From positions 145 through 64,144 of the forward strand of contig JBILXZ010000001.1 of the NCBI GenBank assembly GCA_044378015.1: a stretch of 64,000 nt of DNA, in the 5' to 3' direction. Positions 9,649-58,813 of the stretch are shown one piece after another. This DNA comes from Tagaea sp. GTDB taxonomy: Bacteria; Pseudomonadota; Alphaproteobacteria; CACIAM-22H2. The notes under the pieces are model-generated. The model was not told where the DNA came from, did no database searches, and worked only from the letters and a program-made list of their open reading frames with translations. The translations under genes were made by a program, and so were the position numbers. The first letter of the stretch is position 1; each line of letters begins with the position of its first letter.

Positions 9649-9654
9649 TTCCCG

Positions 9655-10197: not shown

Positions 10198-10209
10198 GTC
10201 CGTCCGAGC

Positions 10210-11079: not shown

Positions 11080-11084
11080 CGTCG

Positions 11085-16183: not shown

Positions 16184-16456
16184 ACGAAGACATTTGCAGC
16201 CGACCCGTGAACAAGGCATGCGTCCGCACCGAAATCGCAAGCCTTGGCTCAACCAAGAACCAAACAATTTCAGCATCTTGAATTATATTTACGGATGCTT
16301 GCGCTGCCGACTTGCGGGACTCGGTCGGCCGGTTTTGCCGGATCCTGCCGAGCCGTGGCGGTAGACACCTTGCTTTTTGCCTGCGCATGATTGTTGCAAG
16401 TCCTTATCCGACGACTCGTTTTTGCGCCGCCGCGTTCTACCTTCGATGGGGTGAAA

Positions 16457-19030
16457 ATGCCTCAAACGCAGCAAGTGCCGCCGATCGGTCCGGGTCTCGC
16501 CCGGGTTCCCGCTTTGCTTTGGCGCGCGCGGCTTGCGCTGGCCTGGGAAAGACTGTGGCCGGCACTCTGGCCCGCTTTCGCGGTTGTTACGCTCTTCGCA
16601 GCGGTTGCCTTGTTCGATCTGCTGCCGCGTCTGCATTGGCTTGGCCATGGGGCGGCGCTGCTGCTGTTCGGGGCCGCCTTGGGGACAGCTTTGTGGCATG
16701 CGCGCAAAGCGTTCCGCTTGCCGGACGCCGTTGCCGCAAGGCGACGCGTGGAGACCGCCAGCGGCCTTGCGCACCGCCCGCTCGCCACCCTTGAGGACCG
16801 TCTGCCGCTGGGATCGAACGACGCAATGGCGCAGGCTCTGTGGGCCGCCCACCGCGTGCGGATCGCGCGCATGCTGGCGCGCTTGCGCGCCGGGTGGCCG
16901 CATCCGGGCATGGCAATGCGCGATCCGCTGGCACTGCGCGTCGTGTTGGGGCTGGTCTTGATCGTGGCGGTCGCCGTCGGCGGCGACCGGGCCGGGCGCA
17001 ATTTTGCGCGTGCATTGTCGCCGGGGATCGAGACGCTTGCGGTGCTGCCCGGCACCCTCGATTTGTGGATTACGCCGCCAGCCTATACTGGCCTGCCGCC
17101 GGTGCTGCCGCGCCTCGAGGCGGGCGAAATCGCCGTTCCTGTCGGCAGCCAGGTCATCGCCCAGGTCGCCGGCGGCAAGGGCCAGCCGCGGTTGGTCGTG
17201 GATACGGCCGTGCAGGCCTTCGCGCCCATGGAAAATGCCGCGCTCGCCGCCGCGCCGTCCGCCGCCGGGGCCGCGAGCCTGCAGGCCTGGCGCGTGGCCG
17301 CCGACTTGAAAGAGGGCCAGCGTCTCACCATCGAGCAGGGCAACGGCACGCTTGCCTCGTGGGCGCTGCGCTTGATCCCCGATACCCCGCCGACGGCGGA
17401 ATTCGCGGCGCCGCCGCAGCGCAATCCGCGCGCGGCCGTGCGCATGGAGTACCGCGCGCGCGACGATTACGGCCTCGCGAGCGTGGTCGCCGAGATCCGC
17501 CGCCCGGCCGACGCCAAACCGAGCCCCGGCGCGCCCATCGACCTCGCGCTGCCGCTCGCGGCCTTGCGCGCCAAGGACAGCACGGCCATCAGCCTGCACG
17601 ATCTCACGAGCCATCCGTGGGCCGGGCTCGACGTGCGCGTGACGTTGCGCGCGTCGGACGAAACCGGCCAGACGGGCCAGTCCGAAACGCTCGACTGGGT
17701 GCTGCCCGAACGGCTCTTCGAGCATCCGGTGGCGCGCGCGGTGATCGAACAGCGCAAATTGCTGATGGGCAATCCCGAACTGCGCGCCGGCGTGGCCCGC
17801 GCGCTTGCCGCCATCGGCCTCAACCCCGCGCAGTATGCCGACGACCAGACGGTGTTTTTGAGCCTGCGCGTCGCGTCGTTGCGTTTGGTGCGCGCCGATC
17901 CCGCCAATCTCGGCGAGGTGCTCGACGACGTGCAAGGCTTGATGTGGGAAACGGCCTTGCGCATCGAAGACGGCCGCCAGTCGGGCACCGAGCGCGAATT
18001 GCGCGCCCTCATGGAACGGCTGCAGGACGCGCTCGCCAAAAACGCGCCGGACGCCGAAATCGAGCAGATGATGCGCGAATTGCAGACGGCGATCGACCGG
18101 CATCTGCGCGCGATGCTCGAACAGGCCCTGCGCAACCCCGACCAAAGCCGCCAGCCGCCCGACCGCAACGCCCAACGCATGGAGCGCCAGGATCTGCAGA
18201 AACTGCTCGACCAGGCGCGCCAGCTTGCGCGCACGGGCGCACGCGACGCGGCGCGCGATCTGCTGTCGCGGCTCCAGCAGATGCTCGAGAATCTCCGCGT
18301 GCAGCAGGCCCAGCGCGAAGGCAACCAGGACTCCCAGCCCGGCGACGGCCAGGCGCAGGAAATGATGAAGAGCCTGCAGGAAATGATGCGCCGCCAGCAG
18401 AGCCTGATCGACCGCACGTTCCGCCGCTCGCAGCAGAACCGGCCCGGCCAATTCCGCCCCGGCCAACAGGGCCAGCAAGGGCAGCAGGGGCAACAAGGCC
18501 AGCAAGGTCAGCAAGGCGAGGGCGAAGGGGACGGCGAAGGCGATGCGGCCGAGCAGGACGCGCTTCGAGGGGCACTTGCCGATCTCATGGGCCAGCTCGG
18601 CGACCTGATGGGCCAGGTGCCCGAAGGTTTCGGGCGCGCCGAACGCTCGATGCGCGACGCGCAAGGCCAGCTGCAGCGCGGCGCGCCCTCGCGGGCGCTC
18701 CGCCCGCAGATGGAAGCGCTCGACCAGATGCGCTCGGCCGCCCGCGACGCGATGCGCCAGATGATGGAACGTTTCGGCCAGGCCGAAGGCGAAGGGGCGG
18801 GCGAGGATGCCTTCAACCAGCAGCAGGCCGAGGACCGCGATCCCTTGGGCCGCGGGCCCGACGGCAGCAACGGCACCTTGTCGGACAGCTACCAGCGCGT
18901 GCCGCAGGTCGGCGAAGGCCAGCTGCTGCGCTCGCAGGAAATCCTCGACGAGCTGATAAGGCGCCTGGGCGAACGCAGCCGCCCGACGGTCGAGCGCGAC
19001 TATCTCGAACGCCTGCTGCGCCGTTTCTAG
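16457..19030 (+). CDS. TIGR02302/DUF4175 family large low-complexity membrane protein (alphaproteobacteria-specific)
   Basis: N-terminal TM helices, about 857 aa, Gln/Arg/Glu-rich coiled region, conserved position after lysA; start placed at MPQTQQVPPIG. Confidence 0.7.
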   Translation: MPQTQQVPPIGPGLARVPALLWRARLALAWERLWPALWPAFAVVTLFAAVALFDLLPRLHWLGHGAALLLFGAALGTALWHARKAFRLPDAVAARRRVETASGLAHRPLATLEDRLPLGSNDAMAQALWAAHRVRIARMLARLRAGWPHPGMAMRDPLALRVVLGLVLIVAVAVGGDRAGRNFARALSPGIETLAVLPGTLDLWITPPAYTGLPPVLPRLEAGEIAVPVGSQVIAQVAGGKGQPRLVVDTAVQAFAPMENAALAAAPSAAGAASLQAWRVAADLKEGQRLTIEQGNGTLASWALRLIPDTPPTAEFAAPPQRNPRAAVRMEYRARDDYGLASVVAEIRRPADAKPSPGAPIDLALPLAALRAKDSTAISLHDLTSHPWAGLDVRVTLRASDETGQTGQSETLDWVLPERLFEHPVARAVIEQRKLLMGNPELRAGVARALAAIGLNPAQYADDQTVFLSLRVASLRLVRADPANLGEVLDDVQGLMWETALRIEDGRQSGTERELRALMERLQDALAKNAPDAEIEQMMRELQTAIDRHLRAMLEQALRNPDQSRQPPDRNAQRMERQDLQKLLDQARQLARTGARDAARDLLSRLQQMLENLRVQQAQREGNQDSQPGDGQAQEMMKSLQEMMRRQQSLIDRTFRRSQQNRPGQFRPGQQGQQGQQGQQGQQGQQGEGEGDGEGDAAEQDALRGALADLMGQLGDLMGQVPEGFGRAERSMRDAQGQLQRGAPSRALRPQMEALDQMRSAARDAMRQMMERFGQAEGEGAGEDAFNQQQAEDRDPLGRGPDGSNGTLSDSYQRVPQVGEGQLLRSQEILDELIRRLGERSRPTVERDYLERLLRRF
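18464..18517 (+). repeat. in-frame (CAR CAR GGN)x6 microsatellite encoding QQGQQGQQGQQGQQGQQG
   Basis: Direct tandem 9-nt units read inside the TIGR02302 gene. Confidence 0.7.
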
Positions 19031-19037
19031 CGTCGGG

Positions 19038-19670
19038 ATGTTCGATCTCGGCAATCTTCTGCTTTTCCTTGCCGCCGCCCTGGTGATTGCGGTCACGCCG
19101 GGGCCCGGCATTTTCTACGTCGCGGCGCGCAGCCTTGCGGGCGGCAGGCGCGACGGGCTCGCGTCGAGCTTCGGCACCGGCCTTGGCGGGCTCGCGCATG
19201 TGGCCGCCGGGGCCGTCGGCGTTTCGGCGTTGATGCTGGCGAGCGCGCAAGCCTTCGCGCTGCTCAAGATCGCGGGCGCGATCTATCTCGTGTGGCTCGG
19301 CATCCAAACCTGGCGCCAGGCGGGCGAGGCTTTGACCGCGCCCGACGGAGCTGGCGCCGGAACGGCGCGCGCCTTCCGCGACGGCATCGTCGTCGAAATC
19401 TTCAATCCCAAGACGGCCGCTTTTTTCCTCGCCTTCCTGCCGCAATTCGTCGATCCGCAGGCGGGGTCGGTCGCGCTTCAATTTGTCGTGTTGGGCACAA
19501 TATCCGTGGCGCTCAACACAGGCGCCGACGTCGTCGTTGCGTTCGCGGCATCGCGCGCGCGCGACGGTCTTGCGCGCTATCCCGTCGCCATTCGCCGCAT
19601 CCGCCGTGCGGCCGGAGCGTCGATCGCCGCCCTGGGGCTGGCTCTCGCCTTCGCGCGCAGGCCCGGCTGA
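19038..19670 (+). CDS. LysE/RhtB-family amino-acid exporter
   Basis: LLFLAAALVIAVTPGPG N-terminal signature; about 210 aa; 6 TM. Confidence 0.85.
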   Translation: MFDLGNLLLFLAAALVIAVTPGPGIFYVAARSLAGGRRDGLASSFGTGLGGLAHVAAGAVGVSALMLASAQAFALLKIAGAIYLVWLGIQTWRQAGEALTAPDGAGAGTARAFRDGIVVEIFNPKTAAFFLAFLPQFVDPQAGSVALQFVVLGTISVALNTGADVVVAFAASRARDGLARYPVAIRRIRRAAGASIAALGLALAFARRPG

Positions 19671-28171: not shown

Positions 28172-29899
28172 TTAGCTCTCGCGGCTGCCGGGGACCACGG
28201 TCAGGGCCGGGCGGCCGACGTCGAGGCCGATTTTGTCGAGGTCGAGATCGGCGAGCCACGGGCGCTCGACGCTCGGCGTGCCGAACAGATAACCCTGCAG
28301 GAGCTTCACGCCCTTGCGCGCGAGATGCTGGGCTTCCTGCGCGCTCTCCACGCACTCGGCCACCGTCTCGAGCCCGAAGCCGTCGGCGAGGCCCAGCAGC
28401 GTGCGGATGAAAAGCTGGTTGTCGACGTTGTTCGCCACGCCGCGCACGAAGCTGCCGTCGATCTTGACGCTGTCCACCGCGATCGCTTTGAGGTTGCGGA
28501 AGCTCGTGTAGCCCGCGCCGAAATCGTCGAGCGACACGCGGCACCCGAGTTCGCGCACCTGAGCCACGAACTTGGCCGTCTCGTCGATGTCCTGGATCGC
28601 CACCGTTTCGGTTATCTCGACCGTCAGGCGCTTGGCAAGATCGGGGCGCGTCTTGAGGGTGCCCGAGAGCGCCCGCAGCCACGAAGGATCGCCCGCCGTG
28701 AGGCCCGAGATGTTGATGGCAAGCCGCACGTCCGGCCAGCGCATGAGTTCGCCCATCGCCATTTCGAGCACGCGCCGATCGAGCAGCCGCATGAGGCCGG
28801 TCTGCTCGACGACCGGAATGAACGAGCCCGCGGGCGCTATCGTGCCGTCCATGCGCTGCAGCCGGATCAGACATTCGTAATGGTCCACGACGTAGGTCGT
28901 GGCGTCGACGATCGGCTGGAAGGCGAAGATCAGGCGCTCGTCCTTGAGGGCGGCCTGCACGTCCGAGGAAATCGCCACGAGGCGCTGATGCAGCTCGCGT
29001 TGCGCGGGGCTTGCCGAGAATATCGCGTAGCGATTGCGCCCGGCGCGCTTGGCCTCGTGCAGCGCGGATTCCGCGCGCGCCATCACCTCGACCGCCGAAG
29101 GACCTTGCTCGAGGAACAGCACCGCACCGGCGGACGCCGTCACGTGCAGCGGCCCGTCCGGCGTTTCGATGGGGGCACTGCGCACGGCCGTGAGCAGCCG
29201 GTCGGCGGCAAGGCCGATCTCGGATTCGGGGCACTGGGCGAGGACGAGGCCGAAACGGTCGCCGCCCGCGCGCCCGATCGTGTCGGAAGCGCGCAGGCTG
29301 CGCTCGAGGCGCTGGCCGATGCCGACCAGAAGCGCGTCGGCAGTCGACCAGCCGAACGCGTCGTTGATCGCCGAGAGATTGTCGACGCCGATCAGCAGGA
29401 ACGCGCCGGGCGCCTTGTAGCGAACCGCGTACTCGATCGCGTGGTCGAGCGATTCGCGCAGCCTCGAGGCGTTGAAATGCCCGGTCAGCGGATCGTAGTT
29501 GGCGAGATACTCCAGACGCGCTTCCTTTTCCTTGCGCGTCGTGATCGCGCGCAGCGTGCCGACGAGGCGCAAGGGTTTGCCGTCTTCGGCGAAGGTCGCG
29601 CGCCCGCGGTCGTGCACCCAGATCAGGTTGCCGCCGTCGCCGCGGATGCGGTAGTCGAGATCGTAGGCGATGCGGTCGACGAAATGGGCGGACAGCGCCT
29701 TGAGGCGCTGCGGCAGGTCTTCGGCGTAGACGCGGCTCTGGAATATCTGGCCCGAGTCCGGAAAATCGGCGCGGCCGCCGAACACGTTTTCCGCGCGGCC
29801 GTGCCAGGCGATCGTGTCGGCCGCGAGGTCCCACGCGTAGGCGGCATCGCCCGCCGCGTCGAGCGCGGATGCCGCAAAATCGCGAGTCGCGCCCGTCAT
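28172..29899 (-). CDS. PAS-GGDEF(degenerate)-EAL c-di-GMP phosphodiesterase-type signalling protein
   Basis: PAS region; GGDEF domain whose signature is degenerate (RAGGDRFGL); EAL domain with catalytic residues (ECLIRL, EITE, DDFGAGYTSF, KIDGSFV); start ATG 29899 overlaps the aminotransferase stop by 1 nt (TGATG). Confidence 0.85.
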   Translation of the reverse strand: MTGATRDFAASALDAAGDAAYAWDLAADTIAWHGRAENVFGGRADFPDSGQIFQSRVYAEDLPQRLKALSAHFVDRIAYDLDYRIRGDGGNLIWVHDRGRATFAEDGKPLRLVGTLRAITTRKEKEARLEYLANYDPLTGHFNASRLRESLDHAIEYAVRYKAPGAFLLIGVDNLSAINDAFGWSTADALLVGIGQRLERSLRASDTIGRAGGDRFGLVLAQCPESEIGLAADRLLTAVRSAPIETPDGPLHVTASAGAVLFLEQGPSAVEVMARAESALHEAKRAGRNRYAIFSASPAQRELHQRLVAISSDVQAALKDERLIFAFQPIVDATTYVVDHYECLIRLQRMDGTIAPAGSFIPVVEQTGLMRLLDRRVLEMAMGELMRWPDVRLAINISGLTAGDPSWLRALSGTLKTRPDLAKRLTVEITETVAIQDIDETAKFVAQVRELGCRVSLDDFGAGYTSFRNLKAIAVDSVKIDGSFVRGVANNVDNQLFIRTLLGLADGFGLETVAECVESAQEAQHLARKGVKLLQGYLFGTPSVERPWLADLDLDKIGLDVGRPALTVVPGSRES

Positions 29900-31230
29900 C
29901 ACGCGACCCGACGCAAGGCAGCCGACAGCATCTCGGCCATCCGGTCGATCTGCGGCTTTTCGACGATCAGCGGCGGCGACAGGGCGACGATGTCGCCCGT
30001 CGTGCGGATCAGCAGACCCGCTTCGAAACAGTCGACGAGCACGTCGTAGGCCCTGGTGCCGGGGGCTCCGGCACGCGGCTCGAGCTCGATGCCCGCCACC
30101 AAACCCAGATTGCGGATGTCGACGACGTGGCGCGTGCCTTTGAGGGCGTGCATCGTCGCCTCCCAATAGGGGGCGAGGTCGGCTGCGCGCGCGAACAGGC
30201 CTTCGTCGCGATAGACGTCGAGGGTCGCGATGCCGGCGGCGCAGGCGAGCGGATGGCCCGAGTAGGTGTAGCCGTGGAAAAACTCGATGGTGTTTTCAGG
30301 CCCCTGCATGAACGCGTCGTAGATCGCCTTGGTCGCGAACACGGCCCCCATCGGCACGGCGGCGTTGGTGATGCCTTTGGCGACCGTCATGAGGTCCGGC
30401 ATCACGGCGAAGCGTTCGGCCGCAAAGGCCGTGCCGAGGCGCCCGAAGCCCGTGATGACTTCGTCGAAGATCAAGAGAATGCCGTGCTTGCTGCAGATCG
30501 CGCGCAGCTTTTCGAGATAGCCTTTGGGCGGTATCAATACCCCGGTCGAGCCCGCGACCGGCTCGACGATCACGGCCGCGACGTTCGACGGATCGTGCAG
30601 GGCGAGGATGGCTTCGAGCCGGTCGGCGAGCTCCGCACCGTGTTCGGGCTGGCCCTTCGAATAGGCGTTGCGCACCGGGTCGTGCGTGTGCGGCAGATGG
30701 TCGACATAGGGCAATTGCAGCCCGAACTGCTTGCGGTTGGGCGAAATGCCGCCCACAGAGATGCCGCCGAACCCCACGCCGTGATAGCCGCGCTCGCGGC
30801 CGATGAAGCGCACGCGCTGGGATTCGCCGCGCGCGCGATGGTAGGCGAGGGCGATCTTGAGCGCGGTATCGACCGACTCGGAGCCCGAATTCGTGAAGAA
30901 AACCTGGTTGAGATCGCCCGGCAGCATCGCCTGCAGACGCGCCGCGAACTCGAACGACAGCGGATGGCCCATCTGGAAGCCGGGGGCGAAATCCATCGTT
31001 GCGGCCTGCTTTTGGATCGCTTCGACGATGGATTTGCGGCCGTGGCCCGCATTCACGCACCACAGGCCGGCCGTGCCGTCCAAAATCTGGCGATTGTCCG
31101 GCGTGTAGTAGTACATCCCTTCCGCGCGCGAAAGCAGTCGCGGTTTGCGCTTGAATTGCCGGTTGGCCGTGAACGGCATCCAAAGCGCTTCGAGGTTGTT
31201 GGGATCGACCGGCATAGAAGCGGCTGGCAT
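29899..31230 (-). CDS. class III (omega-amino acid/beta-alanine--pyruvate type) PLP aminotransferase
   Basis: PLP-lysine region (DEVITGFGRLG), YTYSGHP motif, length about 443 aa; start at MPAASMPV with AGGAG 10 nt upstream. Confidence 0.85.
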   Translation of the reverse strand: MPAASMPVDPNNLEALWMPFTANRQFKRKPRLLSRAEGMYYYTPDNRQILDGTAGLWCVNAGHGRKSIVEAIQKQAATMDFAPGFQMGHPLSFEFAARLQAMLPGDLNQVFFTNSGSESVDTALKIALAYHRARGESQRVRFIGRERGYHGVGFGGISVGGISPNRKQFGLQLPYVDHLPHTHDPVRNAYSKGQPEHGAELADRLEAILALHDPSNVAAVIVEPVAGSTGVLIPPKGYLEKLRAICSKHGILLIFDEVITGFGRLGTAFAAERFAVMPDLMTVAKGITNAAVPMGAVFATKAIYDAFMQGPENTIEFFHGYTYSGHPLACAAGIATLDVYRDEGLFARAADLAPYWEATMHALKGTRHVVDIRNLGLVAGIELEPRAGAPGTRAYDVLVDCFEAGLLIRTTGDIVALSPPLIVEKPQIDRMAEMLSAALRRVA

Positions 31231-31284
31231 CGCGCGTACTCTCCTGAAATAGCCAACGGATTGCCCCAACCCTAAATCCGACCA

Positions 31285-31440
31285 CGTTCTAATGTAACTG
31301 CTAAATCTCAAGAGTGATTGATCTTTCTATATAATAAGCTTTTATAATAATTTTAAGATAATTGAATATTTCTCTTGATTTCGATTTGTATCTAATTTTA
31401 AAATAATTTTATGGTCGCTGCTCCTAATATTATTCTGCTG
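31285..31440. promoter_or_regulatory. sharply AT-rich island (about 25% GC) in the divergent promoter region
   Basis: Sequence 31285-31440 is dominated by TAAT/TTTTAA/AATAATTTT runs in an otherwise 65-70% GC window. Confidence 0.6.
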
Positions 31441-31791
31441 CCGCCGCCCAGTGCCCGCCAAAGCGACGGGCCGCGCGTCGATGATTCGAGCCAGCGCCGC
31501 AAAACTGCACCTAACAACGACAATAATGCCGGTTTCACCGATGGTTTTGCCGCCTCAACCGCCCGTGCCGAGACCGCCTCGCCGCGCCAAAGGGCGCGGA
31601 CGCGGAGTTTCGCCGACGAATTGGTCGGCGAAAGCGGGCGCGCCTCGGGGGCCTTGACCTTCGCGACCCAGCGCATTGCCCAAGAGCGGCTGCGCAGCGG
31701 CGCGTACGTCGAAAACTGGCGCCAAGCGACCGCCGCCTATGCCCAGACCGCGCGCAACGCCGAGCAAAATTTGGGCGGCGTGCGCGCCTAG
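31411..31791 (+). CDS. small hypothetical protein (126 aa, predicted disordered); may be spurious
   Basis: ORF begins inside the AT-rich island; low-complexity Ala/Arg/Gln-rich product; no recognisable domain. Confidence 0.3.
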   Translation: MVAAPNIILLPPPSARQSDGPRVDDSSQRRKTAPNNDNNAGFTDGFAASTARAETASPRQRARTRSFADELVGESGRASGALTFATQRIAQERLRSGAYVENWRQATAAYAQTARNAEQNLGGVRA

Positions 31792-31846: not shown

Positions 31847-33367
31847 ATGGCGTTTGCGACGATGTGGGAGCTTCTGCGGAACGGAGCCGACGGCAGCCCG
31901 GCTTTGGGCGCGCCCGAAACGGCGGCGTTGACCTTCAAGGATCTGCGCGCGCTTGCGGCAGACACGGTTGCCGCGCTCAACCGCATGGGCATCGGCCGCA
32001 ACGACCGGGTCGCGATCGTGCTGCCCAACGGGCCGGAAATGGCTGCGGCCTTTCTTTGCGTCGCCGCCGGGGCGACGACGGCCCCCTTGAACCCCGCCTA
32101 CCGGCAGGAGGAGTTCGAGTTCTACATCGCCGACCTCAAATCCAAAGCCGTGATCGTGCAGACGGGCGACGACACGCCCGCGCGCGCCGCCGCCGCCAAG
32201 CTCGGCGTGCCGCTGATCGAGTTGGCGCCGCAGCGCGATCTCGGTGCGGGCGCCTACAAGCTTTCCTCGAACCTCGCCGGCGCGGCCGCCGCACCGGGCT
32301 TTGCGGCCGCCGACGACGTGGCCCTCATTCTGCACACGTCGGGCACCACCTCGCGGCCGAAGATCGTGCCGCTGTCGCAGGCGAACATTTGCGCCTCGGC
32401 CCGGCATATCGGCGCCACGCTCGAGCTCAAGGGCCACGACCGCTGCCTCAACATCATGCCGCTGTTCCACATCCACGGGCTCATCGCGGCCGTGCTGTCG
32501 TCCTTGGCGGCCGGCGGCCAGACCGTGTGCACGCCGGGCTTCAACGCGCTCAAATTCTTCGCGTGGCTCGACGAGGCGGGACCCAGCTGGTACACGGCCG
32601 TGCCGACCATGCACCAGGCGATCCTCGCGCGCGCCGAGCGCAACAAGGAGAGCCTCGCAAAATCGAAGCTGCGCTTCATCCGCTCGTCTTCGGCCTCGCT
32701 GCCGCCGCAGGTGATGCAAGCCCTCGAAGACACGTTCGGCTGCCCCGTCGTCGAAAGCTACGGCATGACGGAAGCCGCCCACCAGATGGCCTCGAACCCG
32801 CTGCCGCCGCGCGCGCGCTTCGCGGGCTCGGTCGGCATCGCGGCGGGGCCCGAGGTGCGCGTGATGGACGAGGAAGGCAATCTCCTCGGCCCCAACACGC
32901 TCGGCGAAATCGTGATCCGAGGCCCCAACGTGACCAAGGGCTACGAAGCCAACCCCGACGCCAATCTCAAAGGCTTTGCGAATGGCTGGTTCCGCACCGG
33001 CGACCAGGGCACGCTCGACGACCAAGGCTATCTGCGCATCACCGGCCGCTTGAAGGAACTGATCAATCGCGGCGGCGAAAAAGTGAGCCCGCTCGAGGTC
33101 GATGAAGTGGTGATGGACCATCCGGCCGTGCAGCAGGTCGTGACGTTCGCGATCCCGCACGACAAGCTCGGCGAAGAGGTGGGGGCCGCCATCGTGCTGC
33201 GCGAAGGCCAGAGCGCGACCGAACGCGACATCCGCGACTTCGCCGCCAAGCGCCTCGCCGACTTCAAAGTGCCGCGCAAGGTCGTGTTCCTTGCCGAGAT
33301 CCCGAAGGGGGCGACCGGCAAGCTGCAGCGCATCGGCTTGGCAGAGAAGCTGGGGTTGGGCAAATGA
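31847..33367 (+). CDS. acyl-CoA synthetase of the AAE3/Pcs60 (oxalate--CoA ligase-like) family
   Basis: AMP-binding motifs LHTSGTTSRPKIV, MPLFHIHGL, YGMTEA, GWFRTGD, GGEKVSP closely follow Arabidopsis AAE3 / yeast Pcs60; AAAGGA SD 9 nt upstream. Confidence 0.8.
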   Translation: MAFATMWELLRNGADGSPALGAPETAALTFKDLRALAADTVAALNRMGIGRNDRVAIVLPNGPEMAAAFLCVAAGATTAPLNPAYRQEEFEFYIADLKSKAVIVQTGDDTPARAAAAKLGVPLIELAPQRDLGAGAYKLSSNLAGAAAAPGFAAADDVALILHTSGTTSRPKIVPLSQANICASARHIGATLELKGHDRCLNIMPLFHIHGLIAAVLSSLAAGGQTVCTPGFNALKFFAWLDEAGPSWYTAVPTMHQAILARAERNKESLAKSKLRFIRSSSASLPPQVMQALEDTFGCPVVESYGMTEAAHQMASNPLPPRARFAGSVGIAAGPEVRVMDEEGNLLGPNTLGEIVIRGPNVTKGYEANPDANLKGFANGWFRTGDQGTLDDQGYLRITGRLKELINRGGEKVSPLEVDEVVMDHPAVQQVVTFAIPHDKLGEEVGAAIVLREGQSATERDIRDFAAKRLADFKVPRKVVFLAEIPKGATGKLQRIGLAEKLGLGK

Positions 33368-34344
33368 GCCGCGTTCTGATTTTCGGCGCCGGGGCCATCG
33401 GCGGCTACATGGGCGTGATGATGGCGAAGGCAGGCGCCCGCGTGACGTTCTTCGCGCGCGGCGCGCACCTTGCGGCCATGAAGGAAAACGGCATCAAGCT
33501 GATTTCCGAGGGCGCCGAAACCGTGATCTGCGACGCGGTCTTCACCGACGATCCGGTCGAGGCGGGCCCGCAGGATTTCGTCGTGGTCGCCCTCAAGGCG
33601 CACGGGCTTGTTGCGGCAGCACCGCAGATCGCCAAGCTTCTCGCACCCGAAACCGCCATCGTCACGGCGATGAACGGCGTGCCCTACTGGTATTTCTACA
33701 AACATGGCGGCCCGCACGACGGGGCACGCCTCAAATCCGTCGATCCGGACGGCAAATTGTGGGACACGCTCGCCCCCGAACGCGCCATCGGCTGCATCGT
33801 CTACCCTGCCGCCAATATTCTTGCCCCCGGCGTCATCGAACACACCTACTCCAACCGCTTCGCGCTGGGCGAACCCGACGGCGCCAAATCGGCGCGCGCG
33901 GCCAAGCTCGGCGAGATCATGATCGCGGGCGGCCTCAAAGCGCCCGTGCGCCCGAAGATCCGCGACGACATGTGGGTGAAGCTGTGGGGCAATCTCAGCT
34001 TCAACCCAGTGTCGGCGCTGACGGGCGCGACCCTCGACGTGATCACGGGCGATCCCGAAACGCGCAGCGTGGCGCGCGCGATGATGCTGGAAGCGCAGGA
34101 AGTCGGCGAAGCGCTCGGCATCCGCTTCGGCATCGACGTCGAAAAGCGCATCGACGGTGCCGGCGAAGTGGGGGCGCACAAAACCTCGATGCTGCAGGAT
34201 CTCGAAGCCAAAAAGCCGATGGAAATCGACGCGCTTCTGGGGGCCGTCGTCGAGATGGGCGAACTCACGGGCCACGCCATGCCGATCTGCCGCACGGTGC
34301 TGGGCCTCGTGCGCCAGCGCGCGCGCGTGGCCGGCGTCTACTAG
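33364..34344 (+). CDS. PanE/ApbA-family 2-dehydropantoate 2-reductase homolog (candidate oxalyl-CoA reductase, PanE2-like)
   Basis: N-terminal Rossmann motif VLIFGAGAIGGYMG; ApbA C-terminal domain; ATG overlaps the ligase stop (ATGA). Confidence 0.75.
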   Translation: MSRVLIFGAGAIGGYMGVMMAKAGARVTFFARGAHLAAMKENGIKLISEGAETVICDAVFTDDPVEAGPQDFVVVALKAHGLVAAAPQIAKLLAPETAIVTAMNGVPYWYFYKHGGPHDGARLKSVDPDGKLWDTLAPERAIGCIVYPAANILAPGVIEHTYSNRFALGEPDGAKSARAAKLGEIMIAGGLKAPVRPKIRDDMWVKLWGNLSFNPVSALTGATLDVITGDPETRSVARAMMLEAQEVGEALGIRFGIDVEKRIDGAGEVGAHKTSMLQDLEAKKPMEIDALLGAVVEMGELTGHAMPICRTVLGLVRQRARVAGVY

Positions 34345-34352
34345 CCGCCGTC

Positions 34353-34553
34353 ATGGCCGTCGAATCGCCGTGCGTCAACGTCTGCAAGCTCGACGAAGCG
34401 CGCGTTTGCATCGGGTGCGGGCGCAGCGTGGCCGAAATCCGCGACTGGAAGGCGTCCGGCGACGGCGCCAAACGCCGCATCGTCGAGCGCATTCGCCGTC
34501 AGGGGTATCCGCGCCCCGACGCCCTTCGAGCGATCACAGAATCGCAATCCTAA
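34353..34553 (+). CDS. DUF1289 (YdhL-like) small Cys-rich protein
   Basis: SPCVNVCKLDEARVCIGCGRSVAEIRDW matches the DUF1289 Cys pattern. Confidence 0.6.
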   Translation: MAVESPCVNVCKLDEARVCIGCGRSVAEIRDWKASGDGAKRRIVERIRRQGYPRPDALRAITESQS

Positions 34554-34624
34554 CGTCATAGGATTGCCGTGCGATGGCGCTACGCCTCCGGGTGTCGATC
34601 ACTCTCGAAACCGGAGACTCGCGC

Positions 34625-35980
34625 ATGCGCCAGACACTCGCCGCCGCCTCGATCCTCGCCCTGATTGCGGGCGCTGCCCTCGCCGACCAGAAATTTCCGG
34701 CGACCCTCGCGGGCCATGCGCTGCTCCCCGCCAATACGATGGTGCCCGCCCCCGCCGACGCGCCGGACATGCTGAAGACGTCCGGCAAATTCGCCGGTCC
34801 CGGCAACCTGCGCAACGAGCGCCTGGCGAGCGTCCCGGGCACGACAGGCACGCCCGCCGCAAGCCGCCCGACGGGCCTCTCCTTCCCGTTCCAGGGCCAG
34901 CCCGTGCAGGGCTTCTCAGGCATCAAGCGCATCGGCGACGGCACCTACTGGACGCTCACCGACAACGGCTTCGGCAGCAAGGTGAATTCGCCGGACGCGA
35001 TGCTGATGTTCCACCGCATCCGCCCCGACTTCCAGAGCGGCCGCGTCGAGCGCCTCGAAACGATTTTCCTGCACGATCCCGACAAGCTGCTGCCGTTCCC
35101 GATCGCGGCGGAAGCCACGGCCAAGCGCTACCTCACCGGGGCGGACCTCGATCTCGAATCGATCCAGCCGATCGGCGACTCCTTCTATTTCGCCGAGGAG
35201 TTCGGGCCGTATCTCGTCCGCACCGACCGCCAGGGCAAGGTCACCGGCTTCTGGCCGACCGAACTCGACGGCAAGCCCGTGCGCTCGCCGGACAACGCCT
35301 CGAACCGCACGCCGGGCGTGCCGGGCGGCGCTTTCGAGTTCAACCTGCCGCGTTCGAAGGGCTACGAAGGCATGGCCGCCTCGCCCGACGGCAAGTTCCT
35401 CTACGCGATGCTCGAAGGACCGGTCTATGCCGACGGCAAGCCCGAAACCGTCGACGGGCGCGAATTCCTGCGCGTGATCGAATTCGACGTCGCCGCATCC
35501 AAATGGACCGGCCGCAGCTTCCGCTACGTACTCGAAGCCAACGGCCTTGCGATCGGCGACTTCAACATGATCGACGCCAACCGCGCGCTCGTGATCGAAC
35601 GCGACAACGGCGAAGGCGATCCGGCGCGCGCCTGCCCGCAGGGGCAGAACGCGCCCACGTGCTTCGCCACGCCCGCACGCCTCAAGCGCGTATACGCGGT
35701 GAGCTTCGAGGGCGTCGCGTCGGGCGCTTCGTTGCGCAAGCTCGGCCATATCGATCTCATGGATATCGCCGACCCGCGCAATCTCGCCCGCCAGGGTGGG
35801 GCGAACGGCAAGTTCACCTTCCCGTTCTTCACGATCGAGAATGTGGACGTGGTCGATGCCGAGCACATCGTCGTGGGCAACGACAACAACCTGCCCTTCT
35901 CGGCCGGCCGTTCGCTCGACAAAGCCGACGACAACGAAGTGATCCTGCTGCGCGTGCCCGAACTGCTGAACGCGCGCTAA
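34625..35980 (+). CDS. secreted esterase-like-activity-of-phytase (PF13449-like) family protein
   Basis: Signal peptide MRQTLAAASILALIAGAALA; DNGFGS and repeated beta-propeller-like blocks typical of the phytase-like esterase family. Confidence 0.65.
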   Translation: MRQTLAAASILALIAGAALADQKFPATLAGHALLPANTMVPAPADAPDMLKTSGKFAGPGNLRNERLASVPGTTGTPAASRPTGLSFPFQGQPVQGFSGIKRIGDGTYWTLTDNGFGSKVNSPDAMLMFHRIRPDFQSGRVERLETIFLHDPDKLLPFPIAAEATAKRYLTGADLDLESIQPIGDSFYFAEEFGPYLVRTDRQGKVTGFWPTELDGKPVRSPDNASNRTPGVPGGAFEFNLPRSKGYEGMAASPDGKFLYAMLEGPVYADGKPETVDGREFLRVIEFDVAASKWTGRSFRYVLEANGLAIGDFNMIDANRALVIERDNGEGDPARACPQGQNAPTCFATPARLKRVYAVSFEGVASGASLRKLGHIDLMDIADPRNLARQGGANGKFTFPFFTIENVDVVDAEHIVVGNDNNLPFSAGRSLDKADDNEVILLRVPELLNAR

Positions 35981-35990
35981 CCGCCCGCCC

Positions 35991-38225
35991 TCAACGGCTC
36001 TCGCGCGGCGTGAAGCTGCGCGCAGAGCCGTACTGGGGCGGCCAGGGCATCTTGTAGCCTTGCTCGTAGGCGGCGTGGCGCGTCCAGTAGGGATCGTAGA
36101 GATGGGCGCGCGCGAGCACGCATAGATCGGCGCGCCCCGCCGTCAGGATCGTGTTGCAGTCCGCCCAAGACGAGATGTTGCCGACCGTCATCGTCGGCAC
36201 GTCGGCCCCGAAGCGCACGCGGTCGGAAAACGGCGTTTGGAAAAGGCGCCCGTAGACGGGCTGGTCGTCGGCAACCGTCTGGCCTGCCGACACGTCGACG
36301 ATGTCCGCGCCGTGCGCCTTCAAGCGTTTGGCGATTTCGACCGCATCTTCGGCCGTGTTGCCGTCCTCTTTCCAGTCGGTCGCCGATATGCGCACCGAAA
36401 TCGGCCGCTCGGCGGGCCAAGCGCTGCGCACCGCGTCGAACACTTCGAGCGGGAAGCGCATGCGGCCGTCGATGTCGCAGCCGTATTCGTCGGCACGCAC
36501 GTTCGTGAGCGGCGACAGGAAACTCGCCAAAAGATAGCCGTGCGCCATATGCACTTCGACGAGGTCGAAACCCGCTTCGAGGGCGTAGCGCGTCGCCCGC
36601 ACGAAATCGGCCTTGACCGCATCCATGTCGGCGCGGTCCATCGCCTTGGGCGTCTGGCTGTCTTTTTTGTAGGGCAGTGCGGAGGCCGACAGGAGCGGCC
36701 AATTGCCGTCCGCCAAGGGTCGGTCGATGCCCTCCCAGGCTTTGCGCGTCGAGCCCTTGCGGCCCGCGTGCGCCAGCTGCACGCCGATCTTGGCCGGCGA
36801 ATGCGCATGCACGAAATCGACGGTGCGCTTCCATGCCGCGACGTGTTCGGGCGCATAGAGGCCAGTGCAACCCGGCGTGATCCGGCCGTCGGCGCTCACA
36901 TCCGTCATCTCGGTCATCACAAGCCCGGCCCCGCCCACGGCGCGGCTGCCCAGATGAACGAGATGCCAGTCGTTGGCCAGCCCGTCTTCGGCCGAATACT
37001 GGCACATGGGCGAAACGACGATGCGGTTGGCGAGCGTGAGGCCGCGCAGCTTGAACGGCACGAACATCGGCGGCGTGTCGGCGGGGGCGCCGAAACGCGC
37101 GGCAAAGGCCGCATCCACCTTGGCGACGAGGGCGGCGTCGCGCAGCTTCAGATTCGCGTGCGTGATGCGCATCGAGCGCGTGAGCATCGACATCGCGAAA
37201 TCGAGCGGCGCCAGCTTGCCCGCATAGCGCTCGGTCTCCTCGAACCATTCGAGGCTGATCTGCGCGGCGCGCTGGATCGCTTCGGTCTGTGGCCGACGTT
37301 CGGCCTCGTAGGCGGCAAGCGCCTGCGGCACGCTTTTGTGGCGCTCGACGGCGTCGGCAAGCGCGATCGCGTCTTCCATCGCAAGCTTTGTGCCCGAGCC
37401 GATCGAGAAATGCGCGGTGTGCGCGGCGTCGCCCATCAGCACGACGTTGCCGAACGACCAATTGGCGCAGCGCACGGTCGGGAAAGTGCGCCAGATCGAA
37501 CGGTTGGCGACGAGGCGATGGCCGCCGAGCTCTTCGGCGAAGAGGTTTTCGCAGAAGGCCAGCGTCTCGGCCTCCCCGGCCGCGTCGAGGCCCGCCTTTT
37601 TCCAGGTCTCTTCGGTGCACTCGACGATGAAGGTCGAGTTCGCCGCGTCGTACTGGTAGGCGTGCACGCGGAACAGGCCGGTCGCGTGCGGTTTGAAATG
37701 GAACGTGAAGGCCGGATGCGGGCGCGTGGTGCCGAGCCAAACGAATTTGTTGCGCCGCCAGTCGAGCGCGGGCAGCAGCCGGTCGGCGTATTTCGCGCGG
37801 ATGCCGGAATTGACGCCGTCGGCCGCGAGGATCAAGTCGGCGTCCGGAAAATCTCCGGGGTCTTTGGCTTCCGTCTCGAACGCGACGCGCACGCCGAGCG
37901 CCTTGGCGCGGCGCTGCAATATCTCGAGCAGCTTCACGCGCGCGAGGCCGGAAAAACCGTGCCCTGCCGAGGTCACGACCGTGCCGCCGTAGTGGATGTC
38001 GATGTCCGTCCAGTGCGCGAAGGCGCGCGCGATCTCGGCGTAGCTTTCGGGATCGGCGGCGGCGAAATTGCCGAGCGTTTCGTCCGAGAACACGACGCCG
38101 AAGCCGAAGGTGTCGTGCGGCCGATTGCGCTCGACGACGAGAATGTCGCGCGACGGATCGGCTTTTTTGGCCAGGATGGCGAAATAGAGGCCCGCCGGCC
38201 CGCCGCCGATGCTGACGATCTTCAT
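35991..38225 (-). CDS. bifunctional FAD-dependent aromatic monooxygenase / Old-Yellow-Enzyme (FMN) reductase fusion (anthraniloyl-CoA monooxygenase/reductase and salicylyl-CoA 5-hydroxylase family)
   Basis: N-terminal [19 protein letters not shown] motif, DG and GD motifs ([14 protein letters not shown]; [25 protein letters not shown]); C-terminal OYE TIM barrel ([11 protein letters not shown]...[24 protein letters not shown]); start at Met-60 of the 803-aa track ORF. Confidence 0.85.
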
Positions 38226-38271
38226 GGCCCGTGTCTCCCGGTCGCTGCGCCAAATCGAAATTACTTTAGAC

Positions 38272-39063
38272 CTAAAATATCGTCGGCGGAAGCCCCCCGC
38301 GCTGCTGGAGAGCGGCGATGCCGTCCCACAGCAGCTTGACGCCCGTGAGCAGCAGGAAGACGTTGCACCAGAAAAAGAACGGCTTTTCGGGCACGCGCGC
38401 ATGCAGCCAGATGCCGAGCGCCATGCCGAGCGGCGCGAGCGGCAGCAGCACGAGGCTCGTGGCCAGATTCTCGAACGAAAACAGGCCGAGATAGACGAAC
38501 GGCCCGAGCTTCATGGCGTTGACGGCCGCGAAGAAGACGACCGTCGTCGCCACGAACGCGGTCTTGTCGAGCCGCAGCGGCAGCAGATAGACCTGCAAGG
38601 GCGGCCCGCCGGCGTTGGCGACGAAACTCGTGACGCCCGAAACGGCCGACCAGAAAACGCCCTTTGGCCAGCTCGGCCCTCGCGCGGGGGCCGCGCGCCC
38701 GAGGGCCGCCACGAGCCAATCGTTGGCGGTGAAAACCACGGCCACGGCGCCGACGATCACGCGGACCCAGGCCTCGTCGAGACGTTCGAAGGCGAGATAG
38801 CCGAGCACCGTGCCGAGCGCGGCCCCAACCATCAGGAACGCCATGTGCCCGCGCGCGTATTGGGTGCGGTACTTCCACAGGCCGATCGCGTCCATGACCA
38901 TCAGCAGCGGCAGCATGATGGCGGCCGCCTGCGGCACGGGGATGGCGAGCGCCATCAGCGGCACGCCCATCGAACCCATGCCCGACCCGAACCCGCCTTT
39001 GGAAACGCCGACGACCAGAAAGGCCGGCACGGCTAGCGCGTAGAAGAACCAGTCGGTCAGCAC
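38272..39063 (-). CDS. TauE/SafE (DUF81) family anion exporter
   Basis: Repeated GxGGG-type motifs ([18 protein letters not shown]...; [16 protein letters not shown]); GTG start 4 nt after the Anbu stop. Confidence 0.8.
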
Positions 39064-39067
39064 GAAC

Positions 39068-39799
39068 TCAGACTTTCCAGTCCGGATCGGGCACGGTCTG
39101 GAACACCGAACGCAAGCCTTCGGACCAGCGGCGGCGAATGTCGGAGAGATAGACGTCTTTTTCGTCGAGCCTGCGGCGCACGGCCAAGCGGCATTCGTCG
39201 CGTCGCACGATCGCGATGTCGACCGGTAGGCCGACCGACACGTTCGAGCGCAGCGTGGAATCCATCGAGATCAGCGCGCATTTTGCCGCTTCGTTGAGGG
39301 TCGTCTTGCCCATCACGACGCGGTCCAGGATCGGTTTTCCGTATTTCGTTTCGCCGATCTGGAAATAGGGCGTCTCGGCAGAAGCTTCGATGAAATTGCC
39401 GGCCGAGTAGATCTGGAACAGGCGCAAGCGGCGGCCCTTGAGCTGGCCGCCCAGAATGAGCGAGATCGAGAACTCGGTTCCCTGCTCCTTGAGCCGGGCC
39501 GCGTCGAGATCGTAGATCTCGCGCACCGCCCGGCCCGCGAGCCGGGCCGCCTCGAACATCGAGGGCACGTTGGCGAGCGTCTCGGTGCGGTCCTTGCCCA
39601 TGCCCTCGGTCAGTAGATTGACGACCGACTGGGAGATCGCGAGATTGCCCGCGGTCAGCAGCACGAGGCAGCGCTCGCCCGGATTTTCCCAGACATGCAT
39701 CTTGTTGAAGACCGCGACGTGGTCCACGCCCGCGTGCGTGCGCGAATCCGAACACAGAACGAGCCCGTCTTCGAGCAGCAATCCAACCCCGTATGTCAT
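39068..39799 (-). CDS. Anbu (ancestral beta-subunit) proteasome homolog
   Basis: MTYGVGLLLEDGLVLCSDSRTHAGVDHVAVFNKMHVWENPGERCLVLLTAGNLA: Thr2 Ntn-nucleophile arrangement and Anbu-specific block; about 243 aa. Confidence 0.8.
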   Translation of the reverse strand: MTYGVGLLLEDGLVLCSDSRTHAGVDHVAVFNKMHVWENPGERCLVLLTAGNLAISQSVVNLLTEGMGKDRTETLANVPSMFEAARLAGRAVREIYDLDAARLKEQGTEFSISLILGGQLKGRRLRLFQIYSAGNFIEASAETPYFQIGETKYGKPILDRVVMGKTTLNEAAKCALISMDSTLRSNVSVGLPVDIAIVRRDECRLAVRRRLDEKDVYLSDIRRRWSEGLRSVFQTVPDPDWKV

Positions 39800-49399: not shown

Positions 49400-50326
49400 C
49401 TAGCGCACCTCTTGCCCGCGCACACCCTTGGCGACGACCGGTTTGCCCATAGCGCGCCAGCCGACGATGCCCGTGTCGAGAAACGACGCATCGTAGCCTT
49501 GGGCGCGCAGGGCTGCCGCCGTGTCGCGGCTGAACGAAAAACCGTACACGCAATAGACGACGATTTTGCGTGCGCGCGGTAAGCCCGCTTTGGCGCCGTC
49601 CGGATCGGCCGGATCGAGGCGCAGCGCTTGCGGCAGCATGTCGGTTCCGGCCTCGAAGGCGGGCGCGCGCCGCGCATCGACGAAAACGCCGTCGAAACCG
49701 TCGAGCGCCTCGGCCGCAACGCCGTGCAAGGCGGGCCGTGCTACCTCGCCCCGCCACCGCCGCTCGGCCCCAGTCCAGTCGATCGTGGCCAGAAACGCAT
49801 CGACATAGCGCCCGGCTTCGGCGCCGTAGTCGAGATGGTAGGCGTGTTCGTACATGTCGAGCGCAAGCAACGGCGTTGCGCCCGCAAAACCCATCGCATG
49901 GTCGGCGCCCCATTGGATGGCCAAACGCCCGTCGCGATTCTCGCGCACCAGCACGACCCAGCCCGATCCGCCCGCCAACGCCTTCGCGCAGGCCGCAAAG
50001 CGCCTTTCCCAGATTTCGAACGCGCCGAAATCGCGCGCGATCGCCGCAGCGAATTCCGCGGAGGGCGGTTTCGACGGTGCGAGCGCTTCGAAATAGATTT
50101 CGTGAAGCACCATCGAGTTGTAGGCGGCGAGCTCCTCGCGCTTGAGGGCGTTCAACTCGAAAGCAGGAGCGGAAACGTCGAGCGCATCGAGCCGCCCGGC
50201 GATCGCGTTGAGGCGCTTCACCGCCCCGGCGTAGTTGTTGGCGTAGTGGCTCGCGACCAGCTTTTCGCTGAAACCGGGATAGGATTCGGGTTTAGCCGCC
50301 AAAGGCTTCAGATAACGCATGTCCAT
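49400..50326 (-). CDS. Fe/Mn-SOD-fold (ChrC-like) domain fused to a rhodanese (ChrE-like) domain
   Basis: N-terminal SOD-like fold (SHYANNYAGAV...LHEIYFE...WGADHAMGF...LALDMYEHAYHLDY) with partial metal-ligand set; C-terminal rhodanese active-site loop VVYCVYGFSFSRD. Confidence 0.75.
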   Translation of the reverse strand: MDMRYLKPLAAKPESYPGFSEKLVASHYANNYAGAVKRLNAIAGRLDALDVSAPAFELNALKREELAAYNSMVLHEIYFEALAPSKPPSAEFAAAIARDFGAFEIWERRFAACAKALAGGSGWVVLVRENRDGRLAIQWGADHAMGFAGATPLLALDMYEHAYHLDYGAEAGRYVDAFLATIDWTGAERRWRGEVARPALHGVAAEALDGFDGVFVDARRAPAFEAGTDMLPQALRLDPADPDGAKAGLPRARKIVVYCVYGFSFSRDTAAALRAQGYDASFLDTGIVGWRAMGKPVVAKGVRGQEVR

Positions 50327-50358: not shown

Positions 50359-50471
50359 GCTCAAAAGGCAGCGCTTGGACGAGCGGATCGTCTTGGAAAA
50401 TTCGGGGCGACTGCCGACGGCCCCGCGTGGGGGTCTTCATACGCGCGCGCGCGCGCGAACGCAAGTCGCAC

Positions 50472-57580: not shown

Positions 57581-57591
57581 CGGGGGCGCTC

Positions 57592-58797: not shown

Positions 58798-58813
58798 CGC
58801 GCGTTTGCCGCCT

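Follow-up and report, generated by a model that had tools for sequence, protein, structure and literature searches.

A predicted oxalate-to-glyoxylate gene pair in Tagaea sp. joins an oxalate–CoA ligase homologue to a PanE2-like reductase

We analysed a 64,000-nucleotide stretch of DNA from the alphaproteobacterium Tagaea sp. (hereafter the window) and identified two overlapping genes on its forward strand, an AMP-forming ligase gene and a PanE/ApbA-family reductase gene, that probably constitute a two-step oxalate-to-glyoxylate module orthologous to Methylobacterium oxs/panE2. This assignment draws on homology and gene context. The ligase is most likely an oxalyl-coenzyme A (CoA) synthetase of the AAE3/Pcs60/OCS clade of the ANL superfamily, judged from its sequence. 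The reductase, assigned on similar grounds, is most likely an oxalyl-CoA reductase of the PanE2/ApbA2 type, far from verified ketopantoate reductases. A previous sequence-only reading had proposed an oxalyl-CoA synthetase coupled to a PanE2-like reductase, and both the homology of the two enzymes and their conserved neighbourhood support that proposal. So read, the pair is an instance of an already known pathway that is routinely mis-annotated; what is mildly new is its scale, as the adjacent pair is common across phyla.

The features that define the pair are as follows.

31847–33367, forward strand: predicted oxalyl-CoA synthetase (oxalate–CoA ligase, AMP-forming; Oxs/AAE3/Pcs60 type), ATG start, 506 aa
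33364–34344, forward strand: predicted oxalyl-CoA reductase / CoA-acylating glyoxylate dehydrogenase (PanE2/ApbA2 type, EC 1.2.1.17), 326 aa
33364–33367, forward strand: ATGA stop/start overlap of ligase and reductase (letters gcaaATGAgc), with the ligase TGA in the reductase ATG

The overlap had been reported in the sequence-only reading and can be read directly at these positions. An ATGA overlap is by itself unremarkable and frequent in bacterial operons. Both open reading frames (ORFs) have strong coding signatures, with third-position G+C contents (GC3) of 0.89 for the ligase and 0.85 for the reductase in a window of ~67% G+C. A purine-rich AAAGGA sits 5′ of the ligase ATG.

The ligase groups with oxalate–CoA ligases

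The ligase contains an AMP-binding domain (Pfam accession PF00501) and an AMP-binding_C domain (Pfam accession PF13193), the two-domain architecture of ANL enzymes. Its translation includes both motifs on which the sequence-only reading had based its AAE3/Pcs60 assignment, HTSGTTSRPK (P-loop, A3; identical in AtAAE3) and LFHIHGL. When compared to all PDB chains, the ligase matches AtAAE3 (5ie0, 435 bits), LsOCS (6qjz, 419 bits) and Pcs60 (8aff, 375 bits) best, and each of these three entries was deposited as an oxalate–CoA ligase. FadD13 (218 bits), MatB malonyl-CoA synthetases (~208 bits) and aromatic-acid ligases (150–185 bits) come next, a two-fold score drop from the oxalate–CoA ligases to the next PDB enzyme. 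These matches place the ligase among structurally characterised oxalate–CoA ligases, not among the fatty-acyl or aryl-CoA ligases with which it might instead have clustered.

The oxalate pocket of AtAAE3 consists of Val215-His216, Cys288-Ser289, Ala313-Met314, His319 and Lys500, of which Ser289 and His319 are conserved solely among oxalyl-CoA synthetases (PMC8905533). The PDB-search alignment indicates that the window ligase keeps His216, Ser289, Met314, His319 and Lys500 (AtAAE3 numbering) and carries three changes that we judge conservative (Val215 to Ile, Cys288 to Ser, Ala313 to Gly). In its own numbering, Ser289 corresponds to Ser282, His319 to His312 and Lys500 to Lys492, the A10 catalytic lysine within ATGKLQR.

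These pocket residues are widely conserved. In an alignment of 60 ligases that takes in the window protein and its duplicate contigs, the Ser289 equivalent is present in 59 and the His319 equivalent in 58. The Ile-His / Ser-Ser / Gly-Met pocket pattern recurs in essentially all ligase orthologues of the related loci described below and in the Methylobacterium ligase. We also searched the PDB with the 87-aa pocket segment that contains Ser289 to His319, which matched four oxalate–CoA ligase sequences and nothing else at E≤1e-3.

The best NCBIfam match of the ligase is the FadD7 family (NF004511), at 443.8 bits. This score lies below the equivalog cutoff of 650, so the name 'FadD7 family' does not fit the protein. 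The ligase of Methylobacterium sp. C25 is likewise sub-cutoff with this model (433.7 bits). A Methylobacterium extorquens OXS homologue has been characterised, with a Km for oxalate of 9 µM (PMC7154664).

The reductase belongs with PanE2 and ApbA2

The reductase contains ApbA (Pfam accession PF02558, E 1.1e-26) and ApbA_C (Pfam accession PF08546, E 4.3e-30) domains and a GAGAIGG motif at residues 8–14. It falls within NCBIfam subfamily NF005089 (478.7 bits, cutoff 223), as does M. extorquens PanE2 (435 bits), whose sequence (WP_015822665) we recovered from a codon-optimised cassette in the supplement of PMC12686821. The window reductase and PanE2 share 46% identity over 320 aa (E 5e-98, 281 bits). 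In vitro, PanE2 has been assayed both for oxalyl-CoA reductase activity (PMC8411744) and in reverse, where it forms NADPH from glyoxylate, CoA and NADP+ (PMC9485241).

A second characterised relative is Cupriavidus necator ApbA2, which is 51% identical to PanE2 and encoded near frc-oxc, and deletion of apbA2 impairs growth on oxalate (PMC7486775). The C. necator locus in our set (L021) encodes a reductase beside frc that is 60% identical to the window reductase and ~50% identical to PanE2, in agreement with the published value for ApbA2.

Verified ketopantoate reductases are far more distant. The best PDB match of the reductase is 3ghy, an uncharacterised Ralstonia protein (247 bits). Verified ketopantoate reductases in the PDB (from S. 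aureus, T. kodakarensis and others) score at most 83 bits, and so does every PDB entry named 2-dehydropantoate 2-reductase apart from 3ghy. Escherichia coli PanE, which we take to be PDB entries 1KS9 and 2OFP, was not seen among the PDB matches at E≤1e-5. The reductase thus groups with PanE2 and ApbA2 and not with true ketopantoate reductases, the other placement that the sequence-only reading had envisaged.

We examined relationships within the subfamily with a neighbour-joining tree of 80 members, which was midpoint-rooted, with no bootstrap and the canonical PanE outgroup left out. The window reductase lies between PanE2 and the ApbA2 clade, next to a Tagaea metagenome-assembled genome (MAG). 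The Methylobacterium PanE2 branch is outermost and the most divergent of the subfamily, and the oxc/frc-linked clade, to which the ApbA2 orthologues belong, branches from among the ligase-linked members. All sequences in the reductase alignment share an Ala31-Arg32 pair. We take this pair to be consistent with 2′-phosphate binding, presumably as for Arg31 of E. coli ketopantoate reductase. No second ApbA-family gene is present in the 64-kb window.

The pairing is conserved across related genomes

We compared the window with the best 80 (56–84% identity) of 598 confirmed relatives, identified in one reductase-alignment scan of GTDB species-representative genomes. Searching these 80 loci by tblastn with the window ligase as query revealed an orthologue (59–82% identity) in 55. 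In 52 of them the ligase gene is the immediate upstream neighbour of the reductase gene, on one strand with it, and in the other three (L023, L033 and L049) it lies 1.3–4.7 kb upstream. The two genes overlap or are separated by at most 30 bp in 42 of 56 ligase-bearing sequences (window counted; start positions are approximate). With both orthologues adjacent in 52 of 80 loci, the pairing is far beyond chance. Most of the ligase-bearing loci belong to Rhodospirillales, Acetobacteraceae, Rhodobacterales and Hyphomicrobiales, and some are from MAGs labelled Vicinamibacterales, Myxococcales, Gemmatimonadota, Latescibacterota and Poribacteria.

The 25 ligase-less loci include those of Cupriavidus, Paraburkholderia, Pandoraea, Bradyrhizobium, Xanthobacter and Azospirillum. 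At least one of oxlT, frc and oxc is present in 16 of them, and representatives of these genes score over their NCBIfam equivalog cutoffs (oxlT TIGR04259, 597–629 bits; frc TIGR03253, 731 bits; oxc TIGR03254, 1005 bits). Among ligase-bearing loci, oxlT adjoins the ligase in four, and genes for a TctA carboxylate transporter of the tripartite tricarboxylate transporter (TTT) type are found at ten. Ligase-bearing and oxc/frc-bearing loci are largely alternative contexts. No pantothenate genes were identified among the annotated neighbour gene clusters of the related loci. The adjacency of the two genes and the company of oxalate genes across loci mark the pairing as a functional unit of ancient origin and wide conservation that is linked to oxalate genes.

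Within the window itself, tblastn with queries from the related loci detected no oxc, frc, oxlT or FAH-family gene, and Pfam scans of 36 window proteins revealed nothing further tied to oxalate.

Two apparent ligase–reductase fusions, in L012 and L029, were rejected as artefacts, each being a stop-free off-frame extension after a probable MAG frameshift.

We also observed that an FAH-family (Pfam accession PF01557) gene is the commonest reductase neighbour in ligase-less loci (15 of 25) and that one lies between oxlT and panE2 in Methylobacterium sp. C25. These genes are located at 9088–9852 in L081, at ~9011–9802 in L053, L055, L066 and L069, and at ~11590–12492 in L011, L020 and L021. The FAH-family gene has no NCBIfam model match at E≤1e-40.

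Comparison with known systems

The pair most closely recalls the Methylobacterium system. In M. extorquens AM1, work from 2012 by Schneider and colleagues is reported to have established a route in which oxalate is turned into oxalyl-CoA and this in turn into glyoxylate, by way of an Oxs ligase and PanE2. The window has the same two enzyme families, the same two proposed steps, and adjacent genes on one strand. In Methylobacterium sp. C25, the genes are strung as oxlT–FAH–panE2–ligase, with the ligase starting 11 bp past panE2. The C25 panE2 orthologue is 84% identical to PanE2, and the ligase is 65% identical to the window ligase. The gene order differs: Methylobacterium has panE2 and then the ligase, whereas the window and 52 other loci have the ligase and then the reductase. 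Moreover, the C25 cluster has oxlT and an FAH-family gene upstream, and the window is without both.

C. necator H16 ApbA2 (Claassens et al. 2020, PMC7486775) belongs to the same subfamily as the window reductase, and its L021 orthologue is a closer relative than PanE2. The Cupriavidus gene, in contrast, has no adjoining ligase and instead keeps company with a GntR regulator, frc, an FAH-family gene and pntAB, and oxc or oxlT lies close by. The presence of frc and lack of a ligase suggest that oxalate is charged there by CoA transfer rather than at the expense of ATP.

The ligase shares the P-loop HTSGTTSRPK, the oxalate-contacting serine and histidine, and the catalytic lysine with AtAAE3 (5IE0–5IE3), LsOCS (6QJZ) and ScPcs60/Fat2 (8AFF), in alignments that cover residues 28/43 to 500 for the plant enzymes and 148–501 for Pcs60. 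The pocket reads Ile-His / Ser-Ser / Gly-Met in the bacterial clade and Val-His / Cys-Ser / Ala-Met in the eukaryotic enzymes. The eukaryotic ligases also differ in the fate of their product, as their oxalyl-CoA proceeds to decarboxylation (or to synthesis of β-N-oxalyl-L-α,β-diaminopropionic acid, β-ODAP) and not to a PanE2-type reductase.

Finally, the reductase resembles canonical PanE/ApbA (EC 1.1.1.169) in its two-domain fold and in a proposed transfer of hydride from NAD(P)H to a carbonyl beside a carboxylate. It differs from canonical PanE in its distance in sequence, in its predicted substrate, which would be a thioester and not a ketone, and in keeping the company of oxalate rather than pantothenate genes.

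Proposed pathway

Homology and pocket conservation suggest that the ligase would first adenylate oxalate (oxalate + ATP to oxalyl-AMP + pyrophosphate) and then transfer the oxalyl group to CoA (oxalyl-AMP + CoA to oxalyl-CoA + AMP). By homology to PanE2 and ApbA2, the reductase would use NAD(P)H to reduce the thioester carbonyl of oxalyl-CoA by hydride transfer. This carbonyl is alpha to a free carboxylate, like the keto group of the 2-oxo acids used by the ApbA/PanE fold. Collapse of the resulting hemithioacetal would release glyoxylate and CoA (EC 1.2.1.17, in the reductive direction). As with PanE2, the cofactor is probably NADPH. Near the pair, no recognisable gene would take the glyoxylate onwards through malate synthase, the glycerate pathway or transamination.

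Co-transcription and coupled translation are indicated by the ATGA overlap and by the conservation of gene order, and in this way the reactive thioester would be made and consumed together. Activation with ATP costs two ATP equivalents and would be effectively irreversible; a formyl-CoA cycle based on Frc and Oxc would thus not be needed to charge oxalate.

Alternative explanations

Several observations weigh against an oxalate module. The reductase is only 46% identical to characterised PanE2, and NCBIfam names the NF005089 subfamily '2-dehydropantoate 2-reductase'. NCBIfam has no oxalate-ligase model, and the nearest name for the ligase, 'FadD7 family', comes from a sub-cutoff match. Adjacency of panE2 and the ligase gene was seen in Methylobacterium sp. 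C25, a different species from M. extorquens with its characterised oxs. Because the 80 loci were those most closely related to the query, the frequency of adjacency among them is no unbiased family-wide estimate. Finally, the window is without an oxalate transporter, oxc, frc or a recognisable glyoxylate-consuming enzyme (gcl, malate synthase).

The pair might carry out the same chemistry on another acid: the ligase would activate malonate, mesoxalate, oxamate or glycolate, for example, and the reductase would yield the aldehyde of that acid. Function is assigned here by homology only, three of the eight pocket-lining residues (Val to Ile, Cys to Ser, Ala to Gly) are unlike those of the plant enzymes, and the ten ligase-bearing loci with TctA genes adjoin these and not oxlT. 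However, both oxalate-contacting residues are kept, and the substitutions are conservative and common to the Methylobacterium orthologue. MatB malonyl-CoA synthetases score under half of the oxalate ligases, and for LsOCS a 10^4-fold discrimination against malonate has been reported (PMC8905533). The reductase subfamily, moreover, co-occurs specifically with oxlT, frc and oxc. We therefore regard a different substrate as unlikely.

It is quite improbable that the ligase merely salvages free oxalate into a shared oxalyl-CoA pool that is decarboxylated elsewhere. The in vitro reversibility of PanE2 (PMC9485241) is compatible with such salvage, a role of this kind has been proposed for C. necator ApbA2 during growth on glycolate (PMC7486775), and the window contains the glycolate oxidase genes glcDEF. 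Yet the window encodes no Oxc or Frc to draw oxalyl-CoA off, and ligase loci and oxc/frc loci mostly exclude one another. Coupling an ATP-spending ligase to a reductase would be sensible chiefly if the product of the ligase is the substrate of the reductase. As to glcDEF, which the sequence-only reading had offered as linked evidence, these genes are indeed present with typical order and domain architecture (56279–60304, minus strand). They lie 21.9 kb from the pair on the opposite strand, beyond carAB, greA, a ribonucleotide reductase gene and some dozen further unrelated genes, a CitMHS transporter and an ATP-grasp cluster among them. Because these unrelated housekeeping genes intervene, we rejected glcDEF as evidence of linkage.

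We give very little credence to the possibility that the database annotation is correct and the pairing incidental, with a true ketopantoate reductase beside a general fatty- or medium-chain acyl-CoA ligase (FadD7-like). NCBIfam and other database names do call the reductase '2-dehydropantoate 2-reductase', and the FadD7 family is the best NCBIfam match of the ligase. But that match (444 bits) is below the curated cutoff, and verified ketopantoate reductases score ≤83 bits against the reductase, compared to 247 for 3ghy and 281 for PanE2. PanE2 itself bears the same generic name and is nonetheless an oxalyl-CoA reductase. No pantothenate gene occurs among the annotated neighbour clusters, and the adjacency is kept across several phyla.

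An aryl-CoA ligase feeding the convergent gene annotated as salicylyl-CoA 5-hydroxylase/oxidoreductase (35991–38225 or 35991–38402, minus strand) is barely credible: that neighbour tops the NF006101 equivalog cutoff (1154.7 versus 1078 bits), uses an acyl-CoA and also lies 3′ of the pair in the Tagaea MAG (L001), but such a gene is on the opposite strand and in only three of the 80 loci, the enzymes that activate salicylate, benzoate and 4-chlorobenzoate score 150–185 bits versus 435 for AAE3, and the oxalate pocket, to judge from the description of AtAAE3 (PMC8905533), would be far too small for an aromatic ring.

Possible transcription unit and upstream region

The ligase–reductase pair lies within a longer series of same-strand genes.

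31311–31410, no strand: AT-rich divergent intergenic region, candidate promoter/operator of the orf126–ligase–reductase unit, 17% GC, with two WAATTTTARRWTAAT boxes
31411–31791, forward strand: orf126, conserved small ORF, 126 aa, 55 bp 5′ of the ligase
34353–34553, forward strand: DUF1289 four-Cys small protein, 66 aa (Pfam accession PF06945, E 6.7e-17)
34574–35980, forward strand: secreted phytase-like protein (Pfam accession PF13449, E 1.5e-58), outside the conserved module

The DUF1289 gene starts 8 bp past the reductase stop, and the phytase-like gene starts 20 bp past the DUF1289 gene. The phytase-like protein has a signal-peptide-like N-terminus, MRQTLAAASILALIAGAALA/DQ (Sec type; judged by eye from the translation). 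Gene calls of the Joint Genome Institute (JGI) show the same four genes (ligase, reductase, DUF1289 and phytase-like) on metagenome contigs that have an identical reductase. A crude scan predicted no plus-strand intrinsic terminator from orf126 to the phytase-like gene, and the five same-strand genes may thus be one transcript in the Tagaea lineage.

The sequence-only reading had listed the DUF1289 and phytase-like genes with the pair. Their presence on the same strand holds, but conservation does not support them as part of the module. A homologue of the phytase-like gene is missing from all 80 related loci, the Tagaea locus (84% identical) among them. A DUF1289 homologue follows the reductase in two other loci (L001, from Tagaea, and L064), lies nearby in L016, and is found in none of the other 77. 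We therefore rejected the two genes as conserved module core. The DUF1289 protein is probably a lineage-restricted accessory that is co-transcribed with the pair.

The small gene orf126 is possibly the first gene of the transcription unit. The Tagaea MAG has a counterpart in the corresponding place (L001, 6027–6419), with 52% aa identity and a common N-terminus (MV..N.ILLPPP). The window orf126 is called as a gene in the JGI contigs, where the precomputed JGI annotation lists no Pfam hit (no own scan was made), and its GC3 (0.74) is below that of its neighbours.

The intergenic region at 31311–31410 is the lowest-GC 100 bp of the window; the next lowest has 44% GC. Its two WAATTTTARRWTAAT boxes (31348–31362 and 31393–31407) are 45 bp apart and are the only copies in the window, where chance would yield 0. 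Two WAATTTTARRWTAAT boxes at equal 45-bp spacing are located 5′ of the orthologous operon in the Tagaea MAG (5963–5977 and 6008–6022), and paired boxes were not found in the other 79 genome loci. A sigma-70-like match is present at 31375–31404. This AT-rich region is thus a candidate lineage-specific operator or promoter. An Rfam scan of the whole window at gathering thresholds identified no riboswitch or known RNA 5′ of the operon, with a chrB-b motif elsewhere as its sole match.

The same AT-rich region is shared with a divergent gene (29899–31311, minus strand) that matches the omega-aminotransferase AptA (NCBIfam equivalog, 756.7 bits, cutoff 500). The AptA-like gene is kept beside the pair in two of the 80 loci. 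That this aminotransferase aminates glyoxylate is pure speculation.

Implications for annotation and oxalate ecology

The names met for the reductase subfamily in databases are '2-dehydropantoate 2-reductase' or 'ketopantoate reductase family protein', with one 'hypothetical protein', and the ligase is annotated as a generic AMP-binding or FadD-like enzyme. Under such names, metabolic reconstructions would overlook the use of oxalate and assign a pantothenate step in error. Most ligase-less loci have oxlT, frc or oxc, which suggests that the ligase represents a widespread ATP-driven alternative to Frc-dependent oxalate activation. A survey of oxalotrophy markers makes no mention of the ligase, the reductase or glyoxylate (PMC10192776), and a review notes that oxc/frc surveys underestimate oxalotrophy (PMC13409138). 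The value of the pair would accordingly lie in annotation correction and ecology and not in new biochemistry, as this widespread operon escapes surveys that rely on oxc/frc markers.

The enzymes of the oxalate route have been characterised and put to use in engineered pathways (PMC7154664, PMC8411744, PMC9485241, PMC12686821). Both enzymes are already part of synthetic one- and two-carbon pathways (PMC7154664, PMC8411744, PMC12686821), for which natural variants may be useful.

A broader proposal, which we put forward tentatively and consider doubtful as it stands, is that the ligase–reductase operon serves as a self-sufficient oxalate-assimilation (or detoxification) cassette in many bacteria without oxc, frc and oxlT. 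Such a cassette would span Alphaproteobacteria and MAGs assigned to Acidobacteriota, Myxococcota, Gemmatimonadota, Latescibacterota and Poribacteria. In the Tagaea lineage, it may additionally be wired to the AT-rich candidate operator, orf126, the DUF1289 protein and the secreted phytase-like esterase. If the proposal is true, a sizeable guild of oxalate consumers is invisible both to frc/oxc/oxlT surveys and to automatic annotation.

Other features of the window

The gene at 35991–38402 (or 35991–38225) on the minus strand, convergent with the operon, encodes a fusion of a flavin adenine dinucleotide (FAD)-dependent monooxygenase and an old-yellow-enzyme domain. Its NCBIfam match, NF006101, is named 'bifunctional salicylyl-CoA 5-hydroxylase/oxidoreductase'. 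The corresponding gene 3′ of the pair in the Tagaea MAG is located at 9157–11391. No aromatic-acid ligase or thioesterase was seen beside the salicylyl-CoA 5-hydroxylase-type gene.

The chrB-b cis-regulatory RNA motif is located at 50368–50425 on the minus strand (52.6 bits, gathering score 36.5). It lies just 5′ of a gene that encodes a superoxide-dismutase C-terminal domain and a rhodanese domain (49400–50326, minus strand).

Four further ORFs, at 5–1438, 9109–11478, 16289–19111 and 39068–39799 (477, 789, 940 and 243 aa, respectively), have good coding signatures and no Pfam hit at E≤1e-5.

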